This document shows, one piece after another, positions 6,415 to 63,297 of a stretch of 64,000 nucleotides of DNA (the first letter of the stretch is position 1; each line of letters begins with the position of its first letter). The translations under genes and the position numbers were made by a program. Under the pieces are notes generated by a model, which searched no databases, was not told where the DNA came from, and saw only the letters and a program-made list of their open reading frames with translations. Source of the stretch: Octopus sinensis (Eukaryota); NCBI RefSeq assembly GCF_006345805.1, contig NC_043016.1, forward strand, positions 29,450,001 to 29,514,000, read 5' to 3'.

Positions 6415-6529
6415 TGTTTGTCTGTGTATGCATGTATACATGTGAGATAATAGTTTCAGTATTAATAGTGAAAGTATCTCACTTTACATTAGAGATGTTA
6501 TTGTTTCACTTTTGAAACGTAATACTGAA

Positions 6530-6697
6530 ATAGTGTATGAAATGTGCTGGGCTCACATTAGGAAAGAAGTTGAAAACTTTTTGGCCCATGACACTGCATA
6601 GACCCTAAGTAAGGCATGTGTAAATTTTGAATGAAACTCGTTGGATAGTTCTCAAAATTTAGTGACGCGCACATTCTCAGTTTTATATATATAGATT
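6530..6697 (+). mobile_element. Possible Helentron/DINE-like non-autonomous element 3' end
   Basis: aaattttgaatgaaactcgttggatagttct followed by ttttatatatatagat resembles HINE/DINE termini. Confidence 0.35.
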
Positions 6698-7269
6698 ACA
6701 AAGCAAATATTCTTGAATAACACCAAATGTTTTGCGTGTTTGTCTTCCATTTTGATATAAATATATATGTATGTGTGTGAGTGTATGTGTATACATGTGT
6801 TGTATCTGATTGTGTCTATCAAAAAAATATGAGAATACTCATAAGAAGAGGGTAAACTCTTCTGTCATAACTACTGAAACTTCTGTGGTTTATCTACTCT
6901 TTATTAAAGTCAATCTTGTCTCCTTCAACATGACAAAGATGCAATTAGAACACATATCAAGGAAACAATGTTGTAATCTTACTTTTGGCATGAACAATAC
7001 ACAACAAAAACCCTCAAAATCCCTACAAATGCTAGGCCTCAGTCACTAGCATAGCAGTAGGGGCAGCTCTTTTCATCCTGTTGTAAGCTATTGCTGTAGG
7101 CAATATATGTTTTTTTGGGGGGTCTGGGGGCAGCAAATGGAAGGGTCACCTCATGAAGCACATACTCTAGCTACAATAGTAGCCTCAATATTAGTGATGT
7201 TTTCTTCAGGTTATTGCATATCCTCAACATAGCTTATCTCTTTAGCTTCCATGAAATACTGACTTTCAT

Positions 7270-7432
7270 ATAAAAAGCACTGGTGCTGGTGCCATGTGTG
7301 AAGCACCCAGTACACACTGTAAAGTGGTCAGTGCTAGGAAGGGCATCCAGCTGTAGAAACCAAGCCTAGCCGACTTTGGCACCTGATGCGGTCCACGTCA
7401 ATCCATCTATGGAAAACATAAAATGATGATGG
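7270..7432 (+). mobile_element. RTE-tail SINE fragment
   Basis: aaaagcac...taggaagggcatccagctgtagaaac...atgatgatg, shared with the RTE 3'UTRs in this window. Confidence 0.75.
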
Positions 7433-7759
7433 TGATACAAAGCTAAAGTGAGATACACATCTGGCATAGTGCTGCTGCTGCAGATGAGATGCAGACATTT
7501 TAGACTGCATCCCCTTCCAAAACCTCCTCATCTGGCCAGTATGAAGTTGGTCATTAATACATTTAACGCACAGGTACACTGTGTACTCCCTCAGCATTTT
7601 CTACCCAGGCTAAGAATGTCCTCTGCTCTGTATATCTCCTGGTACCTACACTTAGCTTCATCAGACTCACTCTTCACTCTTCTCATGACCCATGTTGGTC
7701 CTTTCTCACCAGGATTCTCCAACTTCTTGCTACCACTTGTTATATGACCAGGTAGTTAC

Positions 7760-8660
7760 AGAAATCATAGCAGGCATTCACTCCAAAGAGAAAAAAAATA
7801 TTGTTTTCTTGAAGCTGGTATTCACTGACACACCAATAATTCTACCTACCCCAGACAGCCAATGATGTTCTGCTCAGACATAATCACCTTCTCAGATCCT
7901 AGTAAAGAAATAATCATGTAAGAATCAACTGTGCTGTGGGAAGAACACAAGAAAGAGGCTCATTATTGTTATGGCTGGCTTCCAACACAAACTGTAGCAA
8001 CAAAGTCTACCCACCACACTTCTTGGTCCATCATCACTGCCTTGAGGACCTGGATACATTCCAGGCTAGTGTCTACGATCAAGTTAGCAATGTAAGTGTA
8101 ACCTCTATGTTAAAAAATCCCAACCCTGAATTGTGGGAGGTTGGTATGCGCTAGATGCAAGCTCCAACAAACCGTTTCATTGGATCTATGCAATTTCTGC
8201 CTCACTGAAGGAGATGCTGTCTCTACTAATGAGGATGTGCAATCTACAGAAGGAATATGCAACCTGTGTCAGTATTCAGATATTGAAAGCACCCCCACCC
8301 ACCAAAAATGAGGCATATAAGAGAACGCTTGCTCTAGGAGATGGCAGAGGAGAGCAGAAGCCAAAGCCAAGGTGATCACTGCACAAAAGCCTGGAGTTAG
8401 GCTGCCAGGATTTGTAGTGATCACTCTGCAAAGCTCCCACTTGGAATCAATAGTGCAGCAAAGAGTAGGTGGGGGTCTTATGTTCCATCACTGAAGCTAC
8501 AGAGAAAGCCTCTAAATGGCTTTGGATAAAGAGGGTAGACCTGTAGTCTTGTTTTTGCTGGGACTTGAAAACCTTGACAGGTTTGCACAATGAGAGCGTC
8601 TGATAACGAAACCAAAACCCTCTAAGACCTCCAGGAATATCACATCACTGAGGATGTAGC
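7760..8660 (+). mobile_element. Rearranged Hero/R2-group LINE remnant (restriction-like endonuclease)
   Basis: Degenerate PDII...EIIM.ESTVLWEE (about 7850-7945) and EVG..GFV...LGI...EATEKASKWLWIKR (8395-8540), resembling the Hero C-terminus. Confidence 0.6.
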
Positions 8661-8790
8661 TCGGAACATCTTATAGATGCATCTTGGAATTATATATATT
8701 TCACCTACATGTATATTTAGACATATGCACAAATATATTTATCTTCTTTGTTTCCTTTGTTTTAGCCAAACAATGACATTATATATATAT

Positions 8791-9177
8791 TACTCTTTTA
8801 CTTGTTTCAGTCATTTGACTGCGGCCATGCTGGAGCACCGCCTTTAATCGAGCAACTCGACCCCGGGACTTATTCTTTATAAGCCCAGTACTTATTCTAT
8901 CGGTCTCTTTTGCCGAACCGCTAAGTAACGGGGACAAACACACCAGCATCGGTTGTCAAGCAATGCTAGGGGGACAAACACAGACACACACGCATATATA
9001 TATATACATATATACGACGGGCTTCTTTCAGTTTCCGTCTACCAAATCCACTCACAAAGCTTTGGTCGGCCCGAGGCTATAGTAGAAGACACTTGCCCAA
9101 GGTGCCACGCAGTGGGACTGAACCCGGAACCATGTGGTTGGTAAGCAAGCTACTTACCACACAGCCACTCCTGCGCC
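8791..9177 (-). mobile_element. Full-length tRNA-derived SINE, family A (CORE-like central motif)
   Basis: Minus strand GGCGCAGGAGTGGCTGTGTGGT (A box)...GGGTTCAGTCCC (B box), tggcaccttgggcaagtgtctt, tail gactgaaacaagtaaaagagta; near-identical to 61969-62376. Confidence 0.9.
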
Positions 9178-9689
9178 TATATATATATATATACACACAC
9201 ATTCCTAGACATATACGTCCGTGTATATATATATGTACAGACGGTATGCAGTTATATACATACACATTTACGTGTGTGTCTGTCTGTCTCTCTCTCTCTA
9301 TATATATATAGAGAGAGAGAGGGAGAGAGAGATGGTGTATATAAGAAAGTTTATCAGCAGTACCTCTAACAAGTCAGCAATTATTAGTACTTTTTTAATG
9401 TTCGAACCAAAAGTAAAAACAACCTATATATACTATGTGACTCTAGACGATTGATTACAGAAGGTATTGAGAACTACTCTTGCATCAGACCAGAGGGTCA
9501 ACTTCCGATGTTATATTATTACTTTCAATTTAGAAGAAGATATATACAAAAAGTATGGTCATATACGAGTACCGATGGTTTATTAATTACTAAATGCCTG
9601 TCTCCCTCGTGTTTAATGCTAGCTTTACTCTTTCAATAAAGAGTATCACCTTATTAGTGAGTGTGAGTGTGTGTGTCTGTGTATGTGAG

Positions 9690-16600: not shown

Positions 16601-19600
16601 GCCTACTAAAACAATTTCAGTGCAACAGCAATCTGAAAAGCCAGCAGTGGTGCTACAGCAACCGGCCAAGTCTGTTACTCTTGTACAGCAACCTGCAAAA
16701 TCTGTGACTTTGGTACAGCAACCGCCTTTAAAAGTAACATCCTTGCAACAACAGCAGCAAACCACAAAGTCTGTAACCGTGCAACAGCAAACTGTAAAGT
16801 CAACAACTTTGTCTCAGTCAGAGCCAGGTAAAACAACTGTAACACAACTGCCAGTTAAGGCTGTTGTCTCACCACAGACGCAAAAACCTATTGTTGTGCA
16901 AGTGCAAAAGCCAGTTCAAACAACACAGGCAGCAGTGACCCAAGTTTCATCACAACAAACATTGAAGCCATCGCAGCCTGCTGTCACTACTTTAGTTTCT
17001 ATTCCGTCACAGCAACAATTACCAAAAACTGTAACTGAAACACTTGTTGGTCAGCAGCAATCAGCAAAATCAGTTAATGTTCAGCAGTTAGTTAGTCAAC
17101 AAGAACCTATTATTCAGAAGCAGGTGATGTCAGCTGCATCTACATTACAACAACCACAGTCTAAAATCTTATCTGTCACTCAACCAGCCTCCACGCAACC
17201 TAGTACGGTACAACAGCAAACCTCAAGACTACATGAAAGTGTGCCAAAAGGCCAAACTCCAGAATCAAAAATATTCTCAGATGTTAAATCTAAAGATCAA
17301 CAGCAATCCTCCACTGCACAATCACAACAGCTTAAAAGTATGAGATCATTGGTAGTGCAACCAGGGAAAGCTCCAGAAACTGTACAAAAGGAAAAATCTT
17401 TAGGAACAGAAACAAAAAGGACAGAAGCAGTGTTGAACACTGTAAAGAAAGCAATGGTATCACAAGAAGTGGGGAAGAAACCAGAACATGTGCAAGATGT
17501 TCAGAAACAGACAGAATCATTACAGAAGGCTAGTAAGGAATCAGGCACACCACCTGTGAGTGTTAGAAGAACAGAAATACCACAGGAAGCTGGGAAGAAA
17601 GCAGAGCATTTGCAAGATACTGCAAAGAAAATAGACCTTTCCAAAGATGTTGCAAAGAAAGTGGAACTGTCAAAAGAGGCTGCAAAGAAGATGGAATCAT
17701 CAAATGAGGCTGCGAGAAAAGTGGAGCCACCAAAAGATGTTGGGAAGAAGGTGGAATTGCCAAAAGATGCAAAGAAAGTTGAACCACAAAAAGACGTTCC
17801 AAAGAAGGTTGAACCACCAAAAGATGTTGCAAAGAAGGTAGAGCCACCAAAAGATGTTCCAAAGAAAGTGGAACCACCAAAAGATGTTGCAAAGAAGGTA
17901 GAACTTTCAAAAGATGTTCCAAAGAGGGTTGAACCACCAAAAGATGTTGGAAAGAAGGTAGAAATGCCAAAAGAGGTTGCAAAGAAGGTGGAGCCTCCAA
18001 AAGTAGAAGTACTAAAAGATACTGCGAAGAAGATGGAAGTGTCAAGAGATGCTGCCAACAAAGTAGAACCATCAAAGGATGCCACAAAGAAAGTGGAACC
18101 ACCAAAAGATGCTGCAAAGAAGGTGGAACCACCAAAAGATGCTGCAAAGAAAGTAGAACCACCAAAAGATGCAGCAAAGAAGGTAGAGCCACCAAAAGAT
18201 GCAGCAAAGAAGGTAGAGCCACCAAAAGATGCAGCAAAGAAGGTAGAGCCACCAAAAGATGCAGTAAAGAAGGTGGAACCTCCAAAAGATGTTCCAAAGA
18301 AGGTAGAACCACCAAAAGATGCTGCAAAGAAGGCAGAATCACCAAAAGATGCAGCAAAGAAGGTAGAGCCACCAAAAGATGCTGCAAAAAAGACAGAACC
18401 ACCGAAAGATGCTGCAAAGAAGGTAGAGCCACCAAAAGATGCTGCAAAGAAGGCAGAACCACCAAAAGATGCCACAAAGAAAGTGGAACCACCAAAAGAT
18501 GTTACAAAGAAAGTGGAACCATCAAAAGATGCTGCAAAGAAAGTGGAACCTTCAAAGGATGTTGGAAAAAGGGTAGAGCCACCAAAAGATGCTGTAAAGA
18601 AAGTGGAATCACCAAAAGATGCTGCAAAGAAGGTAGAACCATCGAAAGAGCTTGGAAAAAAGACAGAGTCGCCAAAAGATGCTGCAAAAAGAGCTGAACC
18701 TATTAAAGATGCTGGGAAAAAGGTAGAAAGTGCGAAGGATGCTGCAAAAAAGGCAGAGGTACAAAAAGATATTGGGAAGAGAGCAGAACCTGTGAAAAAG
18801 GTGGAGTCACCAAAAGATGCTCAGAAAGTAAAAGATGTTGGAAGAAAAGAAGTATCAAAAGATACTGGGAAAAAGACAGAATTTGCCAAAGATGTTGAGA
18901 AGACAGAATCACCGAAGAAAGTGGAGGTGTCTCAGGAAACTGTAAAGAAGGCAGAATCTTTGAAAGAAGCAGCTGGGAAGAAAGCAGAAACAACAAAGGA
19001 GACTAATCAGCAAAGTTCTATGACAAAAACTGTCGGGGAATTAAAATCTATATCTATTAATAAACCAAAAGAAGATGCAGCTGTAGCTGGCCAGACGCAG
19101 ACAGTGAAGGTACAAGTACCAATGACCAGTATTTTAAAACAAGTAGGGGAAACTAACAAGGAAGTGCAACAAGTTGAACCACCTCAAAAGATGCAGAAGT
19201 TTGACTCTCCAAAATACCAGTTAAAGTCCTCCACCACCAGTGCTGCAGGACATCATTTAGGAGTTGTCAGCATTCCAGAAATGACTGTTACTACACAAGC
19301 GAATCAAGCAGTTGTTGGTACTCTAGAAAGTCAAGTGGAGGTTGTGAGTACTCCAAGTAACCAAGTAGAGATTGTCAGTACTCCAAGTAACCAAGTAGAG
19401 ATTGTCAGTACTCCAAGTAACCAGGTAGAGATTGTTAGTACTCCGAGTAATCAAATAGAAGTTGTGAGCACCCCGGAAAATAAAGTAGAAGTTGTTGGTG
19501 CGTCAGGGAACCAATTACAAGTTTTTGGAACTCAAATGAGTCAACTGGAAGTTGTTGGAGCTTCTGGAAATCAGTTGACAGTTGTCAGTACTTCAGGGAA

Positions 19601-24226: not shown

Positions 24227-24722
24227 TATATATACATATGCACATGTATAAATATATATATATATATTTGTTTCAGCCAGGTGGCTGGAGCAACACTGTG
24301 TGGGAATATATATATCTATGTGAGTATATGTATGTCTGAGTATAAAAGAAATGACTTTTGGAAAGAAATTTCGGCAAGAACTTATTTTAGTTTGATTGAT
24401 TGATATCTTCGATTTATTAACTTTGTCTAGTTATATTTGTTTTCAGAAATTTTAAAATATTTTCAATATTTGATTTCTATTACAAGCCACCCATTAAACA
24501 AATTTTTTTACTGGTAAAAATGGAAGTTCCTTTTGTCATTTTGTCACTCTATGCTTGTTGCTTCCATTATACTTTCACATTATGAAATGTTCCTTATTTT
24601 TTTTAGTTTAGATTTCCTCAACATAGAACTAGTTCCGATATTATTTATATTGGCGTGATCATTTGCTTCTTATGTAATATTCAAATAATTTTTCTAATTT
24701 TTTATCTTCTCAATATCATCTA

Positions 24723-25332
24723 AATAATACAGTTCTATATTTAAGAGATGAGGAATTATGTATATTATTTACATTTGACAGATATTTGTCCTCATCTTGT
24801 TTGTTGTTAACCCATTTCGGCTGTATACCCTGCAGCCTTTGTCAGGTGATACATGCCACCCCCCTCAAAATAAAGGTAGAGGAACATTGCAAAGCTGTGA
24901 CACGAGATATTGATAAATCAAGTATAGCTGATCATGTGTGGAAAAATGGAGACCACCTCCCTCTGTGGAATGAAATTAAAATAATAGAGAACACCAATGG
25001 AAAATACGAAAAATAAAAGAAGCTGCATATATGCTAGGACACAGCAACCTCCTAAGCAGACTGAGTGCAGATATGAATAGCATATGGGAACCAGTATTAC
25101 AGAAGGATAGGAATATATTAGATTTATAAGCCCTAAAATTCACTCCATAGTTGCCCACAGACATATGGCATAGTGGTTAAAAGCGCAGGCTACTAACCCC
25201 AAGATTCCGAGATTGATTCCAGACAGTGGCCTGAATAATAATAACATCAGAATTTCCCCAAGACACCTGATGAAAGCTGGGGGGTATATCAGCTGAAAAG
25301 ATGAGGACAAATATCCATCAAATGTAAATAAT
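24723..25332 (+). mobile_element. Penelope-like insertion A: inverted pLTR, GIY-YIG C-terminus, tRNA-like cassette, hammerhead-bearing pLTR
   Basis: 24723-24848 is an antisense pLTR; 24850-25110 encodes PLKIKVEEHCKAV..KSSIADHVWKNGDHLPLWNEIKII / WKIRKIKEAAYML; A box at 25166, B-box-like at 25211; CTGATGA at 25267 and GAAA at 25295. Confidence 0.85.
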
Positions 25333-26246
25333 CATCCAAGTAGTTAAAAAATTAAAAGACATATATCTCAAAAGTTTCTTTAAGAAGCAATAGGGAAAAT
25401 CTTCAAATATATAATTTTTTAAAAGACAAAAAGCACTTTAATAGACATTTTAATTTTCAGTTCCAATAAACTGTGAATATATAATATATTGATGGTAGTG
25501 GCGGCATTAACTCTTATCCAAGTAGTTAATCTGTAGTGAGTTGTTGAGCCTCTTCATCCTAATGAGTGCAAAGGGTGCCAGTGCCTGCGGTGGCAGTTGA
25601 TATATGAAACATATATTATAGATTCTTAATATAATACATATATAAAGCATATCATATATATGTAATATGTGTGTGTGTCAAGAACACTACTCGCTGCCAG
25701 GAGTCAAACCCATGACCTTATGATCATGAGCCAGTTACAGGTCGTGAGCTTCCACTTTGTATAAACACACACACACACACACATATATATACACGCACAC
25801 ATGCATATATTTCTTTTATTTTTGAAGTGCCTTACCATAAAATGTTTGAAATTTGTAGCATTAATAATAACAATGTTTATGACTAGATGAGTAGTTCCAC
25901 ATTGAAGAAGATTATTGAAGTTAGATTTCTTTATAGTAATCCTGCTAATACAGATTGAAGATATTTTGCCAAAGAATAAGATGGTTTTAGACTTAACATC
26001 TAATGACATGTGAAATTAACTCTCTTAACAGTAGTATTTGTATTAGATTCAGGTTGATTTCAGTCTTTCTCATGATATTATCTTTAAGTATTTCTTTAGG
26101 TTTAAATAGTCAGTACATAGCAGATAGGGTCAGAGAGTGTTATTCATGTTGTACAAGTGTTTATCACTTTTTGTATGTGTGTATATATGTATATATATGG
26201 GTAGAGAGAAATCATACATATTTGTACATATGACTGCCTAAATATA

Positions 26247-26614
26247 TAATACAGTTCTATATTTAAGAGATGGGGAGTTATGTACTTTATTTACATTTGG
26301 TGGATATTTGTCCTCATCTTGTTTCTTAACATGTTTCGGCTGATATACCCTCCAGCCTCCATCAGGTGTTTTGGGGAAATTTCAAACCTGGGTTCTCTTT
26401 CTTAATCTATTATATGGTGTAATGGTTTGAGAAATTAAGGCCAATAGGCCAGATATAGTTGTCATAGATCATGAAGGGAAAAAGAAAAAAAAAAACCTTG
26501 GGAATGAGAACCCATTCCCAAGACACCTGATGAAGGCTGGAGGGTATATCAACCGAAACATTGTGTTAAAAACAAACATGATGAGGACAAATATTCGTCA
26601 AATGTAAATAATGT
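26247..26614. mobile_element. Penelope-like insertion B: inverted pair of hammerhead-bearing pLTRs
   Basis: 26247-26405 (antisense) and 26490-26614 (sense) belong to the same family as insertion A; the spacer carries IKANRPDIVVIDHEGKK. Confidence 0.85.
26522..26567 (+). ncRNA. Minimal type-I hammerhead ribozyme motif (family 2), core intact
   Basis: GACAC-CTGATGA-A-GGCTG-gagggtatat-CAaCC-GAAA-CA-TT-GTGTT. Stem I GACAC/GTGTT; family consensus stem III is the AACGTT palindrome seen at 47418-47423. Confidence 0.7.
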
Positions 26615-26981
26615 CTAAATATATGTTCTTTAGTCATTAGAGTGCAGCGATGCTTGGGTACCTACCACTTTGTAGGATATATATATATAGTAAATTTACA
26701 TAAACACCAGTTTGGCTCAAAAATTACATAAACACTAGTAAGGCTCAAAAGCAATGTATCACAGTGTCAAATGCAATATATTGTCTCCCAGTCATTTTAA
26801 TTCTACTGTTCACTTGCCTCTCTCTTTATGTAGATATATAATGTCACCAATGCTGTGTCATTAAAGCAGTGGTAGGCAGGATCAAAGGAAGGAACTGCCA
26901 CCACCTCTGTTGCTTCCACTTCCTATTCCTTGTCTTTTCCTTCCACTTTTTGCATGCTGCCGCCACCACATGCTTTTCTGA

Positions 26982-33000: not shown

Positions 33001-33060
33001 CTGATTTGGGCAAGTTGGCAAGAGGTCAAAAAATAAATAGGTCAGTAATTATTAACAAAA

Positions 33061-33311
33061 GTGGAAGCACATGGCCTAGTGGTTAGAGCAGCGGTCAAGG
33101 GATCGCGGGTTCGAATCTCAGACTGGGCGATGTATGTGTTTATGAGCGAAACACCTAAGCTCCACGTAGCTCCGGCAGAAGGTAACAGCAAATTTCTGAC
33201 TCTTTCACTCCTGCATCTTGCAGCTTACCAGCGTCCCATCCAGGTCGGGAACCTATAACGTCTGGGAAACTGGCCCTGATGAGCCAGGCGAGGCTCGAGA
33301 AGGAACAAACG
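33061..33311 (+). mobile_element. Family C tRNA-derived SINE
   Basis: TGGCCTAGTGG A box and GGTTCGAATC B box; related to 47740-47974 and 62551-62891. Confidence 0.85.
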
Positions 33312-46587: not shown

Positions 46588-47366
46588 ATATATATATATA
46601 TATATAAAGTGAATGAAATTCCAACATAGCCTGGTTTTTATGTATTATTTTTGTATTTTTCCCAATTTTACAATATTACATATTGTGATAAGACAAGTAC
46701 TTTCATACTTTCTGCAATCTTCAGGTTTATATAGTAGCAATATTAACTGATGGGTATGCTATGTACAACTGTAGTGGAATGCTTGAATTTATTCTTTAAC
46801 TAGTTTTCAGTAGGCTCAAGCAAGCTGTATTTTACAAACTGTATTTCAGCCAATCACAGTGTGGCTTAGACATCACAATTCTGTGAGTGTGCCAACATAG
46901 TTCATACTGACATCATGCAATTTAGCTGTCATGTCTTGGGTAGCATACCAAAATAGTTGGCATTATCAGCGTCTTATTCATAAAACCATTTTAACCAATC
47001 AGTGTGCGTCTTAGACATCGTGGTTTGGTGAGTGTGCCATCACTGTTGACATTGACAGAGCTTATTCATAGAGACATTTTAGTCAGAGTCGTCTCTAAAG
47101 GATTGGATGATGAAGAACACTTGATACAGTAAACAGTATTCCTGCCTTAAATGACTATAACATTACTGTTAAAATTTCTAGCATTTTATTATTACTACTA
47201 CTACTACTACCACAACCGTCATCACTAATTAACATCATTATTATTATTGTCTATTTTGAAGGGGTTTGGATTCTTCAATGAAAGTCTTTTCTCATTTCTT
47301 TTCTCAACATCACTTGAGTTGTACAGTTTGTAAAATGGGAATATTACAAACATTTTCTGACATTGC

Positions 47367-48020
47367 ATTATTTACATTCGATGGATATTTGTCCTCACCT
47401 TGTTTGTTGTTAATACAACGTTTCGGCTGATATACCCCGATATACACCCTTCTTCAAGTGTCTTGGGGAAATTCAGGTGTCAAGGGCATATGTCATAGTG
47501 GTTAAGAGTGCGGGCTACTAACCCCAAGATTCTGAGTTTGATTCTATGCAGTGACCTGAACAATAACAATAACAACAATAATAATAATAACATCGACAAA
47601 TACCTTAGAAAAGAGAACCCAGGCTCGAAATTTCCCCCAAGACACCTGAAAAAGGCTGGAGGGTATATCAGCTGAAACACTGTGTTAACAACAAACAAGA
47701 TGAGGACAAATATCTGTTGAGTGTAAATAATGTAAATAGATAAATGTTCCTTCTCAAGCCATGCCAGGCTCATAAGGGCCAGTTTCCCAGTTTCAGTGGC
47801 GTAGAAATTCCTCACCTGGATGGGATCACTCATTTTTGCCAGCTGAGTGGACTGGAGCAACGTGAAATGAAGTGTTTTGCTCAAGAACACAACGCATCGC
47901 CCAGTCCAGGAATTGAAACCACAATCTTACAATCATGAGTCCAACACCCTAACCACTAAGCCACGCGCCTCCACTAAATAATGTACATAATTCCTCATCT
48001 CTTAAATATAGAACTGTATT
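47367..48020 (+). mobile_element. Penelope-like insertion C: inverted partial pLTR, tRNA-like cassette and pLTR, interrupted by a family C SINE
   Basis: Antisense arm 47367-47473; tRNA-like 47484-47557; decayed hammerhead 47641-47690; SINE 47740-47974 flanked by duplicated taaataatgta; tail resumes at 47976. Confidence 0.85.
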
Positions 48021-48254
48021 TTCTGACATGTTTCGCAATGGTTGCTTAATGGTATCTAGTGAACACCAGGCTCCCTAAGTTGTTGTCATGTACTAAATTG
48101 TACTCATGAGCATTTTGATAATGAGTTTTCTGTCTGGCCAATATATATCTCTTAACAATTCAAGCATCTGATGCACTAGATTAGATTTCTTCTTTTATAA
48201 GTTCATATTTCTTGCACCAGCTTCACATAGCAGCCTCAGCCCATCCATATACCC

Positions 48255-62550: not shown

Positions 62551-62891
62551 ATGGGGAGACCTCCTTCGGTCATGAATGACCATGGGATTGCACCTAGTGA
62601 GTTACCCCCTGAGGTACAAGTTCGGGCAAGGTGGTTTATGGATGACCAGCAGTCACCCATGCATACCAGTGTCCCCTCTCCGCACCATCAATGTTATCCA
62701 AGGGAAAGGCAAAGGCCGATACAGCTTGGCACCAGTGATGTCGCAACTCATTTCTATAGCTGAGTTAACTGGAGCAACGTGAGATAAAGTGTCTTGCTCA
62801 AGAACACAACACGCAGCCCGGTCCGGGAATTGAACTCACAACCTCAGAATCGTAAGCTTGACGCTCTAACCACTGAGCCATGCACCTTCAC
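62551..62891 (-). mobile_element. Family C-related tRNA-derived SINE
   Basis: Minus strand TGGCTCAGTGGTTAGAGCG A box, GAGTTCAATTCC B box, gttgtgttcttgagcaagacactt. Confidence 0.85.
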
Positions 62892-63297
62892 AAACCGGCC
62901 CTAATATTGTATTTGTTTCATGGCAAACTGGCCAGACCTGGCATTGCACACCTACCCTAAAATGTCATTCTAAAAATAAAGAATCACATCATTGAAATCT
63001 TGAAGATTTGAGAAAAGCCATGCTTAATTAAAAAGTATGTGAATAAATAAGCATTACATTTGATTGAGCAATCTGAGTTCTAAAGGGTTAAGGGTTTTGG
63101 TAGCTTTCTAAACAACTATGATATCTATAAACATTTAATTTTTGTTTAAACTGTTTTAGGTTTGGTTTTGAAATAATCTAATTTAAACAAATGTTGCTTT
63201 TACTGTTTTCAGGGTTTTCGCGGTGGAAGTCTGAAAGCTTGCGCAGAAGTAAGTATAGTAATTCACAATGAATGAAAACATATGTGTATGTGCACTA

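Follow-up and report, generated by a model that had tools for sequence, protein, structure and literature searches.

A Penelope-type retrotransposon family with a tRNA-derived head at a fixed place in its terminal repeat, and the head's possible role as an internal pol III promoter

Three inverted insertions in the window

The window analysed here, a stretch of 64,000 nucleotides of Octopus sinensis DNA (NC_043016.1, positions 29,450,001 to 29,514,000), contains three insertions, A (24723-25332), B (26247-26614) and C (47367-48020), each consisting of an antisense arm followed by a sense arm, at the coordinates that a sequence-only reading of the window had given. Each inverted pair is flanked by a target-site duplication (TSD) of 9-11 nt, read by eye: 24715-24723 and 25331-25339 for insertion A, with one mismatch; 26238-26247 and 26615-26624 for B; and, on the forward strand, 47353-47363 and 48019-48029 for C. 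Since the duplication brackets the whole inverted pair, each pair represents one insertion event. All three belong to a high-copy Penelope/Poseidon-type element (PLE), of which they are decayed copies in head-to-head arrangement.

Insertion A begins with its inverted arm (24723-24848, reverse strand), which carries the 3' part of the terminal repeat (pLTR), a broken hammerhead core and a tail of ~40 nt. On the forward strand there follow the frameshifted 3' end of an ORF (24849-25129), with the C-terminus of a GIY-YIG endonuclease and a stop codon at 25127-25129; a 29-nt spacer between stop codon and head (25130-25158), whose last bases form a short palindrome with the first bases of the head; the tRNA-derived head itself (25159-25232), with an A box and a B-box remnant, which forms the 5' edge of the pLTR; and a short (AAT)n run with an internally deleted pLTR (25233-25332). 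The hammerhead of this sense arm is left without helix III and without the 3' side of stem I, and the arm ends, without a tail, at the upstream RT start site. The GIY-YIG C-terminus that had been read ahead of the tRNA-like unit is a real, frameshifted remnant; one copy of the family has a match, at E 1e-20, to a protein that carries PF01541.

Insertion B consists of an inverted arm with a tail and a mutated hammerhead core (26247-26411, reverse strand), and a 5'-truncated sense arm without the tRNA head (26496-26614, forward strand), whose hammerhead has a stem II mismatch and a decayed helix III palindrome. At the junction lie about 80 nt of unrelated, LINE-like sequence (26412-26495, forward strand) that can be read as an RPDIVV-type peptide resembling an RLE-type LINE endonuclease; the piece probably records a template switch to another retroelement RNA. 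In insertion C, the inverted arm (47367-47473, reverse strand) has no tail and a decayed hammerhead, and the sense arm is an ORF-less copy that starts with the tRNA-derived head (47484-47557). It continues on the forward strand (47558-47738) through an (AAT/AAC)n run, a short leader, the mutated position of the ORF start codon and a hammerhead at about 47641-47688, with G8 mutated, to the upstream RT start site. Its tail of ~40 nt (47975-48020, forward strand), a stretch of the ORF that separates the two RT start sites, is interrupted by a younger, unrelated tRNA-derived SINE (47739-47974, reverse strand; related copies at 62746-62894 and 33060-33307).

Elsewhere in the window, a 30-bp coding tandem repeat at 17450-18700 (forward strand) encodes a Lys/Glu/Pro-rich stretch of the KKVEPPKDAA type, open over at least 300 codons, and is probably an exon of the host gene that surrounds the insertions. 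The repeat search of the window was dominated by microsatellites.

The element family, its ribozyme and its head

An exact 25-mer 3' of the ribozyme has 9,662 matches in the 2.72-Gb genome and a 29-nt pattern of the head has 3,351, with none in the controls of either search. A random 200 kb sample of the genome held one copy, and because such sampling was too sparse, loci were picked by pattern. Copies diverge from the column modes by about 5-6%, every copy that we saw is dead, and family sequence is present in sequencing runs of six organisms. Two sets of insertions (L213/L216 and L331/L332/L333/L341) recur at separate places, identical or nearly so with their flanks, and are segmental or assembly duplicates. 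No matches came from a scan of metagenomes with the homolog P0016 or from a scan of viral contigs with the family alignment.

One unit of ~2.7 kb runs from the head through an (AAT)n run, a short leader, the ATG, a hammerhead inside the ORF and two RT start sites ~40 nt apart, and then through the rest of the ORF (RT, GIY-YIG), the stop codon and the 29-nt spacer to the next head. The locus L285 is a full-length copy of about 2.7 kb, head to next head, and its pLTR opens with the tRNA head. Long copies have a single ORF, with RT followed by a C-terminal GIY-YIG domain; the RVT_1 match, at E 1e-4, lies under the cut-off, and homologs of the ORF carry PF00078/PF26215. The ORF reads through both hammerhead and tail, as in the Anolis element PAc, and the homolog P0016 has a similar N-terminus. 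No intron was seen, and the RT-EN linker of the translations has no visible extra Cys motif of the kind found in Neptune and Nematis. By every feature tested, the family is classed as an EN+ Penelope/Poseidon-type PLE, an assignment made from features and not from a reference RT tree. The earlier assignment to Penelope agrees with the RT and GIY-YIG ORF, the pLTR, the hammerhead near the ORF start, the optional tail and the inverted 5' arm. Insertion as inverted pairs, likewise proposed from the window, extends to the family: among 48 head-to-head pairs, in which overlapping loci may repeat a pair, 45 carry the tail on a single arm and none carries it on both.

The type I hammerhead layout proposed for the window holds for the family but is intact in none of the six window arms. 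Across 108 copies, each core position is retained in 92-107 and the pairing of stems I and II in 84-98%, the five-pair stems I and II are conserved, and a strict test leaves 19 copies with an intact hammerhead. Among the commonest pair types of these 108 copies, stems I and II show no two-sided change. Position 7 varies between T and A, with the core kept and an Asp/Glu swap in the ORF. The predicted cut would remove the start codon of the ORF. Copy ends do not coincide with the cut site; the predicted hammerhead, which would need a dimer, is probably not what sets them. For the Anolis element PAc, the available part of PMC11167929 reports that insertion in vitro does not require hammerhead cleavage.

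What is the head? It has A and B boxes at tRNA spacing together with tRNA homology. A covariance model built from 15 tRNA genes of the genome matches the unit of insertion C (47484-47557) at E 1.4e-4 and has no match to that of insertion A (25159-25232) at E<=1. The two units, which are 86% identical to each other, had been described as tRNA-like; they are real and fixed in position but decayed, and only the one at 47484-47557 is recognized by the tRNA model. ARAGORN, run on the window, did not call the head as a tRNA, and neither a tRNA nor a hammerhead appears among the 150 Rfam matches listed of 241 in the window or among three matches on one genomic copy. As a functional tRNA gene the head falls short: it has no cloverleaf fold (z 0.2-0.7), its acceptor and T stems are broken, and no T run follows it. 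The best parent tRNAs score closely, Ser(GCT) at 52.4 against Cys at 50.5 (means, 10 types compared); genes for these two tRNAs occur in clusters at L077, C3:67264740-67295650 and C7:93040342-93065556. The window also contains tRNA-derived SINE heads at 62811-62890 (reverse), 33065-33145 (forward) and 47739-47974 (reverse). Two of these align to the PLE head at a score of 58, against 50-55 for tRNA genes, hinting that the head may be derived from a SINE. Many 5'-truncated arms (L146, L189, L205, L207; L176, L182, L196; L184, L153) are joined through their own AAT run to the AAT tails of other SINEs. Such joins could reflect insertion into SINE tails or template switching, and are a possible route by which the head was captured. 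An origin of the 29-nt spacer as a relic fold-back of the head was also considered and dropped for lack of significance, with P values of 0.13-0.28 for three copies and 0.01 for a fourth.

The position of the head is nearly invariant. It follows the ORF stop in 29 of 30 loci picked by GIY-YIG (one of them the window, two overlapping) and in 19 of 20 picked by RT, and it opens the pLTR of L285, in line with the earlier proposal that a tRNA head was captured inside the terminal repeat. Lying at a fixed place after the ORF, the head is no chance SINE insertion. Among 30 loci selected with only the head as criterion, a hammerhead lies downstream in 27 and GIY-YIG upstream in five, while 25 have no upstream ORF; no TSD was seen around the head, so that it does not behave as an independent SINE of few copies. 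All 50 PLE-RT loci pulled with a distant protein belong to this head-bearing family, and among them no head-less PLE family or head-less parent was found in the genome.

Do the short copies form a lineage of their own? The C of the B box is kept in 77 of 86 copies that start at the head, from which copies picked by the window query are excluded, and in 45 of 69 heads attached to an ORF (P 3e-4). The internal control fails, with C56T in nine and G57A in eight of the head-start copies, and a second CpG (26-27) also differs between the groups (P 0.01); we take the B-box difference as no more than suggestive. At three linked sites, ORF-attached and head-start copies cannot be told apart (P 0.57-1.0, in an unselected set of 51 with seven attached and hence low power), and the linked haplotypes are found both with and without the ORF. 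Since these sites separate nothing, the short copies cannot be called a separate SINE lineage. The ORF-less copies carrying tRNA unit and hammerhead that had been envisaged are numerous, but no separate SINE or retrozyme subfamily emerges, haplotypes being shared with ORF copies. Apparent subfamily differences were discarded as mostly due to selection by the window copy used as query. The short copies resemble SINEs in starting at the head and sharing the partner's 3' end, with no diagnostic changes of their own found. They do not have the organization of retrozymes or SM-alpha: the copies stand alone or head-to-head, their ends lie 50-95 nt beyond the ribozyme, and tandem hammerhead-bounded monomers are absent.

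Copy starts, T runs and RNA reads

We mapped 5' ends on 95 arms, the first 95 of 100 places listed for the 3' pattern, a selection blind to the head, with one unresolved arm excluded and the end of another set by hand. Of the 39 arms that reach +6, 26 end at -8 to +6 and 13 continue into GIY-YIG. The hazard of ending at the head is 0.074 per nt, compared with 0.002-0.003 elsewhere, which is 23-30 times background (Poisson P ~1e-26, the arms being not fully independent); with one arm per locus and a duplicate removed, 24 of 36 end at the head. A second group of 22 ends lies within the AAT run, often abutting the AAT tails of other SINEs, and a minor cluster (5 of 95 arms) lies at another palindrome at +155.

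Copies that retain the ORF start at the head as well. All 62 matches to a pattern running from tail into ORF include eight that reach the 5' end of the head, and seven of these stop there, four with at least 150 nt of ORF; the eighth is a true tandem GIY-head-ORF junction (L493). Both loci that reach the head, among 25 picked by the N-terminal part of the ORF, start at it. The bulge of the upstream spacer is kept in none of 64 non-ORF junctions, and none retains spacer beyond about -8, while many ends keep 2-7 nt upstream of +1. The short palindrome (-7 to +5) coincides exactly with the pile-up of ends and is the main rival cause of it: fold-backs on it make up 25 of 72 junctions. Nevertheless, 39 of the 64 non-ORF junctions end at the head although they lack a long fold-back. 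About 30 nt upstream of the head, the stop codon is overlapped by a weak TATA-like word.

Across the whole 2.7-kb unit, in 440 aligned pieces that total 226 kb, no TTTT on the sense strand is common to as many as 10% of the covering copies, whereas half of the copies share 13 TTT, 29 AAAA and 9 CCCC runs; GGGG is likewise unshared, where shuffles expect about one. Codon shuffles of natural open stretches expect 2-3.6 TTTT runs. Four copies have none (P 0.02-0.09) and two have one private run each (P 0.12-0.25), these six representing one element and not six independent tests. In comparison, 13 LINE ORF clusters of the genome have 2.2-8.0 TTTT per kb, with 142 runs observed against 112 expected. 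The PLE controls were taken from metagenomes, none from the same genome, and comprise 78 loci with 300 codons out of 86. Their 50 clusters show no overall depletion (370 observed, 363 expected), although five have 0.6 runs per kb or fewer, and of 19 control stretches matched for length and T content one has at most one run. Two of these metagenome ORFs, L401 and L472, are low in TTTT (1 against 4.3 expected and 5 against 12.8), with no tRNA head detected. Of 46 host tRNA genes, 40 have a run of T>=4 within 40 nt, and in 18 the first such run is exactly T4. We regard the TTTT deficit as moderate and not decisive evidence for a pol III reading. Three points go beyond the sequence-only reading: ORF-bearing copies, too, start at the head; the ORF contains the hammerhead; and TTTT is missing from the whole element. 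The anatomy, end positions and run counts are direct observations.

Three RNA runs from a related organism place 6,490-9,672 reads each on one copy, equally on both strands; 64-68% of reads continue into the flanks and there are no piles of starts or ends. The signal is read-through of old copies, and is therefore uninformative on pol III. Compared with DNA contigs at L030:1150-1830, the RNA runs show 13-15 A>G difference sites against 7, and 12-13 T>C against 8. Inverted pairs would in principle be editing substrates; C>T and G>A sites are doubled too, and the RNA and DNA organisms differ.

What the head may do, and related systems

How could one element yield both SINE-like and ORF-bearing copies with a common start? 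We consider it probable that the head is the element's internal promoter, that pol III reads through a terminator-free unit, and that internal RT starts yield both kinds of copy. That the polymerase is pol III we infer. Pol III would start a few bases before the head and would read the whole unit, since it would meet no terminator. The element's RT/endonuclease would nick both target strands and start reverse transcription internally: starts in the first pLTR would give ~300-nt copies of tRNA head and hammerhead that resemble a SINE, and starts in the second would give 5'-truncated ORF copies such as that of insertion A. Two cDNAs joined head to head would leave inverted pairs with a one-sided tail. 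We propose more tentatively, as a serious possibility a little short of probable, that this retrotransposon is autonomous and protein-coding, that pol III transcribes it over the full 2.7 kb from a captured tRNA promoter, that its ORF has been purged of TTTT, and that it makes its own SINE-like copies through reverse-transcription starts in the first terminal repeat. The protein might be translated from the uncapped pol III RNA or from pol II read-through. Against the pol III reading, translation of an uncapped RNA stays unexplained, and the TTTT deficit relative to the element's own codons is modest.

That modest deficit (P 0.02-0.05) would be compositional chance if pol III made only short RNAs. 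The head would then drive a SINE-like, Penelope-mobilised tRNA and hammerhead element from short or 3' copies, with the ORF RNA coming from pol II read-through of tandems or host transcripts. We think this unlikely, though it has several observations in its favor: the 25 of 30 head-picked loci without an upstream ORF, the better B-box CpG retention in head-start copies, which fits secondary source copies, the true tandem at L493, and the argument, in the part of PMC10886601 available, that pol III processivity is too poor for autonomous elements. It has to contend with ORF-continuing copies that also start at the head, including the full-length L285, with the haplotypes shared by ORF-attached and head-start copies, and with the rarity (1 of 19) of so few TTTT runs in matched control ORFs.

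The pile-up of ends might instead arise from a pol II start directed by the TATA-like word, or from snap-back of cDNA on the palindrome, the head being a passenger or a pol II promoter. The position of the palindrome at -7 to +5, the frequent fold-back junctions and the small end cluster at +155 all fit, and the promoter of Penelope is of the internal, TATA-less pol II type according to the accessible text of PMC2377424. Related PLEs have TATA/CCAAT words at the head slot, in 4 of 18 by regex and in five more by eye; in the metagenome PLEs L397, L400, L407, L471 and L475, CCAAT-like and TATA words stand upstream of the hammerhead in the 3' pLTR, in the head's slot. We rate this explanation lower again. 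It does not account for the 39 junctions that end at the head without a long fold-back and with no spacer beyond about -8, the upstream TATA-like word is absent from head-start copies, and the TTTT deficit is left unexplained. It is very improbable, finally, that RNase P cuts long pol II transcripts at the 5' end of the head, as in tRNA precursors, with the cut RNA as template: ends do cluster near tRNA position +1, but the head lacks a cloverleaf fold, its acceptor and T stems are broken, and many ends keep nucleotides upstream of +1.

The mobile elements described with pol III promoters are short and non-coding (SINEs, TRIMp3). What appears new here is a coding PLE with a tRNA head fixed at the start of its copies and a unit free of shared TTTT; PLE anatomy itself is known. 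If the pol III reading is true, a coding element that starts at a tRNA head and avoids pol III terminators over 2.7 kb would break the expectation that autonomous elements must use pol II (PMC10886601), and would pose for pol III, as R2 did for pol I, the problem of how an uncapped RNA comes to be translated. Such an element would also offer a simple route for SINE-like families to arise from Penelope elements, and the combination of head and TTTT-free ORF is a signature to seek elsewhere. Were pol III to make the short copies alone, this would still be a Penelope-mobilised tRNA-headed element, of which we found no description in the literature searched. We found none of a tRNA-headed PLE either, where Repbase, Dfam or the O. 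vulgaris repeat library may hold a consensus. Near 80 metagenome PLE loci there were three tRNA-like matches, at L400, L438 and L471, and the 3' pLTR of all three lacks a tRNA head; those at L400 and L438 look like unrelated upstream SINEs, and an A/B pattern at L417 was rejected as a head since it lies in the antisense arm.

TRNA-derived SINEs combine a tRNA head with a 3' end recognised by the RT of a partner LINE. The short copies of this family likewise consist of a tRNA head and a 3' end recognised by a partner RT; in contrast, the partner is a PLE, the head is part of an autonomous element, and no distinct SINE lineage is resolved. Such a head goes unmentioned in the portions of PMC8557442, PMC13282606 and PMC7229834 that were available, and the following comparisons rest on similarly partial texts. 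Like Penelope/Poseidon EN+ PLEs such as PAc (PMC11167929), the family has a single RT and GIY-YIG ORF, a pLTR, a hammerhead that overlaps the start of the ORF, a pair of internal RT start sites that makes the tail optional, and inverted 5' arms; in PAc nicking and extension take place on both target strands, and the tail lies between the two start sites. D. virilis Penelope has its promoter, of an internal TATA-less type, within the pLTR (PMC2377424), and a promoter slot in the pLTR is common to both. Unlike known Penelope/Poseidon PLEs, the family has a tRNA-derived A/B-box head in this slot where the others have a pol II promoter, its copies show sharply fixed 5' ends at the head, its sense strand is TTTT-free and no intron is seen.

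With minimal PLE hammerheads (PMC4209133) the ribozyme shares a type I core, an extra base after position 9, a G10.1-C11.1 pair and a palindromic helix III of dimer type. It differs from them in a putative GUU cleavage triplet, and its head-to-head ribozymes, on opposite strands, cannot pair in one RNA. Schistosoma SM-alpha/Sj-alpha offer another parallel, with a pol III-type promoter followed by a hammerhead (SM-alpha) and units of ~300 nt (PMC6765202, PMC7229834). However, SM-alpha and non-LTR retrozymes are non-coding tandem repeats processed by efficient hammerheads, whereas the copies here, which derive from a coding element, lie dispersed or inverted and have their ends at PLE RT start sites and not at the cut. 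In promoter placement the family resembles the TRIMp3 elements Cassandra, Helenus and Ajax (PMC10886601), which have a small-RNA-derived pol III promoter inside the terminal repeat, proposed to come from a SINE insertion. TRIMp3 are short non-autonomous LTR elements, for whose autonomous partners PMC10886601 expects pol II; here, by contrast, the terminal repeat that contains the head belongs to a PLE that codes for protein.
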